Assembly: GCF_022045235.1 (NCBI RefSeq)
Contig: NW_027266286.1
Coordinates: 51,522,001 to 51,586,000 of the forward strand
Source of the DNA: Haliotis cracherodii
Lineage: Eukaryota
Length of the DNA stretch: 64,000 nucleotides
Direction of reading: 5' to 3'
Part shown: positions 5,296 through 7,199 of the stretch, one piece after another
How the letters are laid out: the number at the start of each line of letters is the position of its first letter
How positions within the stretch are numbered: position 1 is the first letter of the stretch
Made by a program: the position numbers and the translations under genes
The notes under the pieces: generated by a model
Seen by the model: only the letters and a program-made list of their open reading frames with translations
The model's database searches: none
What the model was told of the DNA's origin: nothing

Positions 5296-5612
5296 GGATC
5301 GAAATCGGACCAATCCGAAGCCTGGATTGTCGACCAATCAGAAGACAGCATCGACCAATCAGAAGACAGCACCCGACCCGAGTTGTGCTTTCTCTCCCAT
5401 GGTAAAATCCATTTCCTATGGAAAAGAAACACAAGGGTCGGGTCGTTTTAGAAAACCGAGGTGCAGGCCAGGCACCGGAACGAACCAATCGGTGCGTTGC
5501 GTTTTGGACCAACCAGGAAGCAGCCAATTTCGATCCGGTTCTTCCCCCATAAAACAAGAGTGGATTCGAGTGGGCCAGTGTCACTTGTAAAATTGATGTG
5601 ATAAAATCAAGA
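5296..5612 (+). promoter_or_regulatory. Repeated promoter module, copy B; lies between the divergent pPolB and BIR ORFs
   Basis: CCAAT at 5310, 5334, 5355, 5485 and 5524; AAACACA 5427-5433; CATAAAA 5548-5554. Highly similar to 6370-6683. Confidence 0.8.
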
Positions 5613-6065
5613 ATGGCTGAAACAAAGAAGAGTGGTACGACGACACGTGGCGAAGATGTGGTGATGGATAGTACAGATACTCGTGGATGTTGGAGTAAGA
5701 GTCATGCCGAGGAGGCGGTGTCACTGCTCAGTCAAACGCCATCGCACTATTATCTATGCTTTGAAAGAAGGCTCGCTTCGTTTGAGACGTGGCCCACGCA
5801 AATGTATCAGACTGCTGAAGAGATGGCTCATGCGGCCTTTGTCTACACTCAGGGTGCCGATGGTGTGTGCTGTTTCCAATGTGGTGTGCGGCTGAGACAA
5901 TGGGCACCCCACGACAATCCTTGGGCGGCACATCACAAGTGGTCCCCAGACGGCGATTACCTCAAGCTAACCGGGCTGGTGAAACACCAGAAGCAACTAC
6001 AACTACACTATCTCTGCGAAGAGAAACAGAGGTACACGAATAACGTAGCAGAGCCGGCTGCCTAG
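5613..6065 (+). CDS. Single-BIR-domain protein (IAP/survivin-like), 150 aa
   Basis: RRLASFETWP...AAFVY...DGVCCFQCGVRLRQW..HDNPWAAHHKWSPDG matches the BIR pattern Cx2Cx16Hx6C, except that the last Cys is Gly. Confidence 0.88.
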   Translation: MAETKKSGTTTRGEDVVMDSTDTRGCWSKSHAEEAVSLLSQTPSHYYLCFERRLASFETWPTQMYQTAEEMAHAAFVYTQGADGVCCFQCGVRLRQWAPHDNPWAAHHKWSPDGDYLKLTGLVKHQKQLQLHYLCEEKQRYTNNVAEPAA

Positions 6066-6125
6066 GAGGACGTTTCCCGTGTCCTGCGTTCCCGTTCAAG
6101 TTCCCGTTCAAGTTCCTGTTAATAC

Positions 6126-6160
6126 GGCCCTTTTGAGGGCCACCCATCTCACCCAAAAGA
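6126..6160 (+). terminator. Histone-type 3' stem-loop plus downstream element
   Basis: GGCCCT-TTTG-AGGGCC (6126-6141), ACCCA (6142-6146), AAAAGA (6155-6160); begins about 60 nt after the BIR ORF stop. Confidence 0.85.
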
Positions 6161-6369
6161 CAACTTTCCTCCTTTGCTTTACCAACCCAAACAACAATCC
6201 AAAACAAAGAACCCACATGACATTCCGATTGGCATGGGAGTGACACACACGTACATCACGTAGGCATTCCCACGTTCATGTCTACCTATGAAGGTCCACC
6301 TTCCTTTAGCATTCAGACGACCGTCTACCTACAAAAAAATACCAAGGCTACCCAAGAAGAAATAAACCC

Positions 6370-6683
6370 GGATCGAAATCGGACCAATCCGAAGCCTGGG
6401 TTATCGACCAATCAGAAGCCGCGCTCGGGCCATGGCGGTCTCTGATTGGCCGAACCGGGGTTGTGCTTTCTCTCCCATGGTAAAATCCATTTCCTATGGA
6501 AAAGAAACACAGGGGTCGGTCCGCTTTGGAAAACCGAGGTGCTGGCCAGGCACCGGAACGAACCAATCGGGGCTGCGGCCTGGGGAACCAACCAAGAAGC
6601 AGGGTGTCAGTACCTCTCCTATAAAACAACAGTGGATTCGAATGGATCAGTGTCACTTGTAAAATTTATTCGAAAAATCAAGA
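6370..6683 (+). promoter_or_regulatory. Repeated promoter module, copy C
   Basis: CCAAT at 6384, 6408 and 6563; ATTGG at 6445; AAACACA 6505-6511; TATAAAA 6620-6626; Inr-like TCAGT 6647-6651. Confidence 0.85.
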
Positions 6684-7007
6684 ATGGCTGAAAACTGGGA
6701 TCTGGAGCTAGCCTCAGTGGTGCACCCTTTGCCACTGTGCAAAGGGTGTCGCTCGGAGTTGGAGAAGAAAGAAGCAGTACCGCCATTGCCATTGCCTCCA
6801 CCATGGCAATGCGGTACATGCCAAGGGGGCCTGCCTGTGTACGCCCTTGGCACAAGGGCACGGGATGGAACATTTCAATGTGTGTACTGTAAGACCATCC
6901 TCAAGGACACCTACGTGCGGCGGTTAACGCACACCGGTAGGTGTCCTGTGAGGAGACAGATGAATGTCCACCCGTGCCTTTGCACCATGGCGTGTACATG
7001 CATGTAA
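6684..7007 (+). CDS. Small Cys-rich, putative zinc-binding protein, 107 aa
   Basis: Three CxxC pairs (CKGC, CGTC, CVYC), a Pro-rich linker and a C-terminal CLCTMACTCM. Bounded by promoter copy C and a 3' stem-loop. Confidence 0.7.
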   Translation: MAENWDLELASVVHPLPLCKGCRSELEKKEAVPPLPLPPPWQCGTCQGGLPVYALGTRARDGTFQCVYCKTILKDTYVRRLTHTGRCPVRRQMNVHPCLCTMACTCM

Positions 7008-7017
7008 ACATCAAAAC

Positions 7018-7052
7018 GGCCCTTTTCAGGGCCACCCATCTCTCCCGAAAGA
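7018..7052 (+). terminator. Histone-type 3' stem-loop plus downstream element
   Basis: AAAAC-GGCCCT-TTTC-AGGGCC (stem-loop 7018-7033), ACCCA (7034-7038), GAAAGA (7047-7052); starts 11 nt after the stop codon. Confidence 0.9.
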
Positions 7053-7199
7053 CAACTTTCCTCCTTTGCTTTGACGACCTTCCAAACCAAACCATGAACC
7101 CGTCTCCTCCTCCTTCCCTCCCTCCCTCCCTTCACCACCACCACCCTCCCTCCCTCCCTTCACCACCGCCACCCCGTCTATGTTTAGAACAACAACAAC

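Follow-up and report, generated by a model that had tools for sequence, protein, structure and literature searches.

The stretch of DNA considered here (hereafter the window) comprises 64,000 nucleotides (nt) of the Haliotis cracherodii genome (C23:51,522,001-51,586,000) and begins within a Polinton-type mobile element, which we compared with its relatives by searches across the 1.18-Gb genome. The element measures 11.1 kb; its right 7.4 kb occupy positions 1-7446, and its left end is outside the window, 3,649 bases to the left of the first position. Two small genes face the right terminus. Open reading frame (ORF) A (5613-6065, plus strand) encodes a single-BIR protein of the inhibitor-of-apoptosis type with 150 amino acids (aa; PF00653, 4.8e-19), and ORF B (6684-7007, plus strand) a Cys-rich, likely zinc-binding orphan of 107 aa with CxxC repeats. 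Both proteins start with MAE, and both genes lie between matching flanks: the upstream blocks (5296-5621 and 6370-6692) are identical in 273 of 336 aligned columns (BLAST E 1.4e-81) and the 3′ blocks (6121-6181 and 7013-7073) in 56 of 61 (E 4e-22). The coding parts are unrelated (BLASTP E 0.22), and a profile search returned the Pfam BIR domain for ORF A and nothing at E<=1 for ORF B. No relative of ORF B was found in Pfam, in the Atlas at >=0.9 or in a protein search within 58-188 aa.

An initial annotation of this DNA had pointed to common flanks around unrelated ORFs, and that observation stands. The main point, however, is the Polinton context and the histone identity of these flanks, neither of which was recognized there. 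Also missed was their wider distribution within the element: the promoter is present four times, including a copy at 948-749 on the minus strand and another 2.1 kb left of the window, and the 3′ block three times, two of which form the inner edges of the terminal inverted repeats.

Could the two ORFs descend from a single duplicated gene? Relative to five distant copies, differences per codon position amount to 0.17/0.14/0.25 in ORF A and 0.15/0.17/0.36 in ORF B, in comparisons that are non-independent; the excess of third-position change makes both look like real genes whose proteins are under selection. An ordinary tandem duplication, for example of a split BIR-RING inhibitor of apoptosis whose coding parts diverged past recognition, would explain why a Cys-rich ORF directly follows a BIR gene. 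It has next to no chance of being correct, given that the ORFs lack similarity, that ORF B has no RING match in Pfam and is also encountered away from BIR, after a zinc-knuckle cassette or after a protease gene, and that three further unrelated ORFs reside in the same shell and contradict such an origin.

The 3′ Block Resembles the End of a Replication-Dependent Histone Gene

Stem-loop B (7018-7033, plus strand; GGCCCT-TTTC-AGGGCC) lies 10 nt after the stop codon of ORF B, within a match to Rfam RF00032 (7013-7058; 35.6 bits, cut-off 34). Its sequence is identical to the host H1 stem-loop, and it folds as predicted. Stem-loop A (6126-6141, plus strand), with a 6-bp stem 60 nt after the stop codon of ORF A, falls below the Rfam cut-off in this copy and scores 35.7 bits in copy L002. 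Stem-loops of related elements reach 34.0-37.0 bits, compared with 34.3-39.9 for host H1, H1-like, H2A, H2B, H3 and H4 genes. The 16-nt structure has a 6-bp stem, a 4-nt loop, a G-C pair at position 2 of the stem and a U at loop position 3, the features by which the available text of bioRxiv 10.64898/2026.10.14.759114 describes histone stem-loops. AAC precedes the element hairpin, as in host core histones, and ACCCA and then AAAGA follow it. After stem-loop A, ACCCA (predicted cleavage after 6146) and the histone-downstream-element-like AAAAGACAACTT fill positions 6142-6166; after stem-loop B, ACCCA (predicted cleavage after 7038) and the downstream element GAAAGACAACTT fill 7034-7058, both on the plus strand and both spaced as in host histone genes. 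In outline, the excerpted texts of bioRxiv 10.64898/2026.10.14.759114 and PMC9756948 describe histone 3′-end formation as binding of SLBP, pairing of U7 and cleavage five nt past the hairpin, without addition of poly(A).

How general is this arrangement? The exact hairpin occurs at 455 genomic sites, and 40 stretches were taken around sites among the first 100. From 138 candidate 3′ blocks, seven were dropped for lack of a recognizable stem in register and three because they were not Polinton-linked, leaving 128, not every locus of which has been shown to be a Polinton. Of these 128 non-host blocks, 117 contain AAAGA, a word outside the search pattern used to select blocks, 10-22 nt past the stem, 113 of them at offset 14 (host histone genes, 13-15); in a control window further down, the count is 0 of 127. 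Where blocks had been chosen without the exact hairpin, 75 of 81 keep all six stem pairs. Distant subfamilies carry the downstream element AAAGAACGCTT/AAAGAATGCTT, near-identical to the AAAGAATGCTT of host H3/H2A. Across 52 distant blocks, column conservation is 92-100% in the hairpin, a selection-biased figure, 83-92% in AAAGA and 38-87% further down. As to conventional poly(A) signals, none of the five copies with a located terminus has AATAAA on the stretch from stem-loop B to that terminus, and AATAAA precedes promoter B in one of 30 copies.

The right terminal inverted repeat (7015-7446; in self-alignment, 93% across 325 nt and 98% across 159 nt) has its inner boundary at the AAC immediately 5′ of stem-loop B. 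Since the hairpin forms the inner edge of the repeat, both outward-facing terminal genes receive the signal from the repeat itself, and hairpin A represents an internal copy.

On the side of the host, an SLBP gene is present (PF15247). A U7 small nuclear RNA was found neither by Rfam (65 of 206,431 candidates scored) nor by a first sequence pattern; a second pattern gave 12 matches versus 8 in a reversed control, none of them with a convincing 3′ hairpin, and the best of five candidates scored by Rfam reached 17.8 bits (E 6.2).

Histone-like ends were also seen on genes of another kind. At L122:1264-1539 and in two related L122 genes (C2:42.77 Mb), non-histone ORFs of 92-94 aa are followed 36-47 nt after the stop codon by a histone hairpin and downstream element. 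One of the three scores 35 bits in Rfam; they have no Polinton gene within 10 kb and no Pfam or Atlas match. These are possibly a second class of non-histone genes with putative histone ends.

The 5′ Block and Its Probable Connection to Histone H3

Promoter module A (5296-5575, plus strand) contains CCAAT words near 5310, 5334, 5355, 5485 and 5524 and a TATA-like CATAAAA at 5548, and its best host match is H3. Module B (6370-6647, plus strand) contains CCAAT near 6384, 6408 and 6563, a reverse CCAAT at 6445 and TATAAAA at 6620. The first CCAAT pair of module A is spaced by 24 nt, as in host H3, and none of 200 shuffles reached its score against the host H3 promoter, a significance that applies to module A alone. 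An H1-type promoter, suggested by an AAACACA box, was rejected; host H1 lacks that word, and the H1 5′ untranslated region (UTR) is unmatched.

The UTRs point in the same direction. When the 60 nt before each start codon were compared with host UTRs and 1000 shuffles, 5′ UTR A (5576-5612, plus strand; CAGTGTCACTTGT...ATCAAGA before the ATG) and 5′ UTR B (6648-6683, plus strand) both matched host H3, with scores reached by 4/1000 and 0/1000 shuffles, respectively, and neither matched five other host histone UTRs or a Toll-like receptor control. Two related copies match the host H3 5′ UTR still better. Related element ends, moreover, hold an H3 5′ UTR together with H3-tail coding DNA (85% over 61 nt, E 4e-13); when such an H3-like stretch is searched against the whole genome, host H3 genes are returned (E 3.9e-8). 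L178 and L183 show PolB followed by the same promoter, then an H3-tail-derived ORF, stem-loop and terminus; this ORF, which matches the H3 tail region alone, occupies the slot held by BIR gene A in the window copy. Because the shared 5′ UTR matches host H3 and relatives carry H3-tail coding DNA within the same promoter/stem-loop shell, we envision the capture of an H3 gene, and we regard a histone origin of the flanks as very probable.

The resemblance to metazoan replication-dependent histone genes extends over the whole unit: an intronless ORF, a CCAAT/TATA promoter and an H3-like 5′ UTR, AAC followed by a 6-bp stem with a 4-nt loop, ACCCA and a purine-rich downstream element at the host spacing. 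Unlike those genes, the cassettes enclose BIR, orphan and zinc-knuckle cargo rather than histones, their copies are dispersed in a mobile element, and the distance from stop codon to hairpin mostly falls outside the host range. Viral captured histones and histone-tail mimics include giant-virus histones, bracovirus H4 and influenza NS1. As in these cases, a virus-like element acquired histone sequence, and one cargo keeps H3-tail repeats; here, however, the regulatory shell was kept and multiplied and the histone fold was lost.

The H3-tail cargo itself (L120/L169, L170-L184) contains repeated tail motifs whose modifiable lysines are altered, with K4 changed to M in 5/6 aligned segments, K9 to Q in 5/8, K18 to Q in 17/19 and K27 to Q in 17/25; K14 and K23 are each kept in 20 of 22 segments, counts in which repeats and near-duplicate loci are also represented. 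Those copies that were inspected (L079, L120, L178 and L183) are broken. This cargo could be a histone-tail decoy. Among the histone genes of the host, H1 and 5S rRNA form a tandem array of ~3-kb units, with one of each per unit, at C23:50.93-51.15 Mb (L033-L052), ~0.4 Mb from the window, and the core histones lie apart from it on C37, as a four-gene repeat of 4.25 kb; core histones were located with PF00125, PF15511 being a poor query for them.

Arguments for and against Histone-Type Processing

Taken together, we consider it fairly probable that a Polinton lineage flanks unrelated accessory genes with a shared promoter/5′ UTR and a histone stem-loop/downstream element, likely derived from host H3, and that the predicted products are SLBP/U7-cut, non-polyadenylated mRNAs of the S-phase type. 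That SLBP and U7 actually process the element mRNAs is a prediction by analogy, to which we give somewhat better than three chances in five.

Several observations weigh against this interpretation. The counted blocks are related copies, some from overlapping loci, and hence not independent, and the exact hairpin had served to choose 40 loci. Of the three hairpins, two lie inside inverted repeats, where homogenization alone could keep them, and a compensatory stem variant was seen once (L174). The element hairpin is the host H1 version and not the present host H3 version (GGTCC...GGACC), and the likeness to the H3 promoter is weak beyond short CCAAT words, the score of module B being reached by 7/200 shuffles, with the same result for H1. 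In this copy alone, hairpin A has a changed fourth loop base (TTTG; 1/38 BIR-linked blocks), and the left-arm hairpin of this copy contains two mismatches. In the ORF C cassette the promoter is not accompanied by a hairpin, and a capsid-bearing relative has, at one of its ends, a downstream element whose hairpin is absent. Finally, the distance from stop codon to hairpin is 10 nt for ORF B, 60 nt here and ~330 nt in other copies for the BIR gene and ~125 nt for the zinc-knuckle gene, as against 27-43 nt in host histone genes; a distance of 25-60 nt is described as needed for stability control in the available text of bioRxiv 10.64898/2026.10.14.759114. As most of these distances fall outside 25-60 nt, S-phase-coupled decay may not apply, and histone-like processing without histone-like degradation is conceivable.

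The principal competing explanation treats the 3′ signal as a fossil, left from an ancient H3 capture and carried passively within the terminal inverted repeat, with cargo mRNAs ignoring the hairpin, or with the hairpin acting on DNA, as the border of a repeat during replication or end repair. It draws on the location of the hairpin at the inner edge of the repeats, the often non-canonical stop-codon distances, the near absence of compensatory changes and the stemless end of the capsid-bearing relative. Signal maintenance by repeat homogenization accounts for the two terminal hairpins and less well for the internal hairpin, the constant sense orientation and the missing poly(A) signal. Although located outside the repeats, the internal block after the BIR gene has, even in distant subfamilies (L135, L136), retained its hairpin, ACCCA and downstream element; the hairpin is always in sense orientation to the cargo ORF and just downstream of it; hairpin and AAAGA columns are conserved above those further down in the 52 distant blocks, the hairpin part being biased by selection of the blocks; and no poly(A) signal intervenes between ORF B and the terminus. 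We therefore judge the fossil explanation unlikely.

Alternatively, the hairpin RNAs might act mainly as decoys for SLBP or U7, lowering host histone synthesis so that element DNA becomes less chromatinized, with the cargo proteins being secondary. The 455 exact hairpin copies, many of them in elements, and the H3-tail-like ORF once carried by the lineage would suit such a role. There is also a precedent in human cytomegalovirus, which is reported to inhibit replication-dependent histone synthesis and to need SLBP, the route linking the two being unknown according to the excerpted text of PMC9169081. A primary decoy function nevertheless seems improbable, because the cargo ORFs display third-position bias indicative of selected proteins and because each cassette comes with a full promoter, UTR and start codon.

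Cassettes Are Reused and Exchanged

The promoter/stem-loop shell wraps at least five unrelated cargos: BIR gene A, ORF B, a CCHC zinc-knuckle gene, an 87-aa orphan and the H3-tail-derived ORF; the promoter alone also precedes ORF C. The notion of a reusable expression module, put forward in the initial annotation, is borne out by this diversity and by the movement of the ORF B cassette to the opposite element end in a related subfamily: here it occupies the right end, and in L168/L112 the left end, behind the zinc knuckle; in L119, ORF B follows the protease gene.

The variant of the 3′ block follows the subfamily and not the cargo, one type being present in 71/71 blocks next to near-type BIR, ORF B and zinc-knuckle genes and in 0/22 next to far-type genes, which requires exchange between internal and terminal blocks. 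Variants of the 5′ UTR are likewise common to modules A and B (at site 2, 12 G/12 A in A and 15 G/13 A in B). Among the loci listed, chosen as 30 for their similarity to promoter B, ORF B follows promoter B in 30/30 and BIR gene A precedes it in 29/30; the order is also constant in the seven whole left arms seen. For the promoter query of the genome, 40 of 644 first-look candidates were scored. Young copies being stable and subfamilies differing, cassettes appear to change place over evolutionary time, homologous exchange being the most likely route.

A more radical possibility, in which an integron-like system would swap cargo on demand and the flanks would be its dedicated recombination sites, appears very improbable to us. 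Integron gene cassettes do have conserved flanks around unrelated ORFs, and the placement of cassettes in different ends and orders among subfamilies, as well as the 5′ UTR variants common to modules A and B, would be in keeping with such a system. Each unit of the element, however, has its own promoter and lacks integrase-specific sites, no recombinase is encoded in the element, the order is constant in 29/30 of the close copies listed and in the whole left arms, and fusion junctions fall at varying places inside ORF 5′ ends or UTRs. Of the proposal that the flanks serve as recombination handles, homology-driven exchange over evolutionary time survives, and site-specific swapping, for which neither a recombinase nor a cassette site was seen, does not. 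Similarly, the expected catalogue of cargos between module copies did turn out to hold several unrelated ORFs, although in close loci their order is nearly fixed.

The Polinton Element, Its Relatives and Its Surroundings

The element ends in AGTAGT...ACTACT and is bordered on both sides by the 6-bp target duplication GCCGTT; a second copy, L007, has the target duplication CATGTC. GC content is ~50% in bases 1-7446 and ~39% beyond. From left to right, the element contains a terminal repeat, a zinc-knuckle gene (PF00098, 1e-12), a second BIR gene, ORF D, ORF C and PolB, all leftward, then BIR gene A and ORF B, both rightward, and a terminal repeat. The protein-primed DNA polymerase B gene (1006-5214, minus strand) is broken into several frames in this copy, with PF03175 matches on three separate ORF pieces (best 2e-13). 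The third promoter copy (749-948, minus strand) corresponds to the upstream part of the module and lies ahead of ORF C (3-506, minus strand), a cassette lacking a stem-loop.

With Polintons/Mavericks and adintoviruses, as covered in the available text of PMC8502044, the window family shares PolB, inverted repeats of the AG...CT type, a 6-bp target duplication and small accessory genes near the ends; that text makes no mention of stem-loops or polyadenylation. BIR genes occur likewise in other Polinton families of this genome. Differences are the histone 3′ signals of the accessory genes and the lack of capsid, protease, ATPase and integrase genes in the window family. Packaging ATPase, capsid and protease ORFs are absent between the termini and from the seven whole copies seen, and a retroviral-type integrase is absent from this copy and from whole copies seen, except in a nested foreign insertion in one. 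Since integrase is present in a relative with similar termini, we place the element in a Polinton lineage, as a member that is partial or non-autonomous. One copy with integrase and ATPase inside was considered as a full-length family member and rejected, its own inverted repeats identifying a nested insertion. This nested element (L078:5900-10000 and L079:1-1700) has long inverted repeats, an rve+chromo integrase and an ATPase.

A 10.4-kb relative (L128+L162, C3:3.67-3.68 Mb; L204+L205; L206+L207) has termini 85-89% like those of the window family and holds ATPase (Pox_A32, 2e-06), integrase, capsid-like and protease-like ORFs (weak matches to Capsid_N and Peptidase_C5); PolB is absent in 3/3 copies examined. 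Its capsid has ten genomic matches at 97-100% identity. A complete 16.5-kb sister in L189-L191 combines PolB and the capsid-side gene sets. The window family, which has PolB, and the 10.4-kb element may represent a Polinton split into two complementary segments. Further relatives include a truncated remnant of the capsid-bearing relative near the insertion (L032, 15-19 kb left of the window) and a family copy in which internal PolB fragments form a long tandem array (L075+L074, C6:29.63-29.64 Mb).

As a control, the capsid genes of more distant Polintons (30-50% identity) were taken together with their surroundings, in five regions of 30 kb, three with inverted-repeat ends and four with BIR genes. 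A search of these for RF00032 and the hairpin gave no match, which indicates that within this genome the histone-type shell is a feature of this lineage alone. In viral contigs, the hairpin pattern gave no matches, and PolB relatives were not found there either.

The insertion site lies amid tandem Toll-like receptor genes (LRR and TIR domains; window 9267-11744, ~21,000-23,400 and ~57,100-59,600, and also L032). Elsewhere in the window, 5′-end fragments of U3 snoRNA form a 52-nt tandem array (37907-38225, minus strand), and a 37-bp minisatellite with strong strand skew occupies 62,100-64,000.

Discussion

Use of histone gene signals by one lineage of Polintons is real, with strong support from the DNA, and is apparently unreported: the literature searched, with subscription papers, repeat databases and supplements outside its scope, contained no report of histone 3′ signals on Polinton genes. 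Replication-dependent histone mRNAs are the sole known non-polyadenylated cellular mRNAs, and crosslinking of SLBP to RNA (CLIP) in human cells gave no true non-histone target, as stated in the accessible part of PMC4604434.

How might a mobile element have come to use such signals? We envision that an ancestor captured an H3 gene near its terminus, as the H3 5′ UTR and the H3-tail coding DNA of relatives suggest. The stem-loop would then have become the inner edge of the terminal inverted repeat, an arrangement seen in the sequence, such that an outward-facing terminal gene at either end would gain a stem-loop. In a third step, the promoter-to-stem-loop unit would have been duplicated and its interior replaced, and the units, whose shuffling and homogenization are seen, may still exchange by homology-driven recombination or gene conversion. 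By established histone biology, the CCAAT/TATA promoters would recruit RNA polymerase II, SLBP would bind the hairpin, U7 would pair with the AAAGA element and CPSF73 would cut after ACCCA. The benefit is a matter of speculation and might consist in supplying anti-apoptotic and chromatin- or RNA-binding accessory proteins in replicating or germ-line cells.

A bolder version of this scenario has, in our estimate, an even chance of being right. It holds that an H3 gene was turned into a general expression vector, that its products are the first non-histone mRNAs cleaved by SLBP/U7, that the signal in the terminal repeat converts any gene at the end, and that the lineage has split into two co-spreading segments sharing their ends, one with polymerase and accessory genes and the other with integrase and capsid genes.

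If the histone-type reading is true, BIR and other genes are routed through the histone pathway, which would constitute a new strategy of viral and transposon gene expression, and such genes would be missed by poly(A)-selected transcriptomes. Nature would also have provided, in these genes, a way to ask if a histone ORF or the histone locus body is required for histone processing. Through its hairpin, the edge of the terminal repeat provides a simple possible route by which Polintons may adopt new cargo genes, and the genes of this element would be the first non-histone messages predicted to be completed as histone messages are and not by a poly(A) tail.

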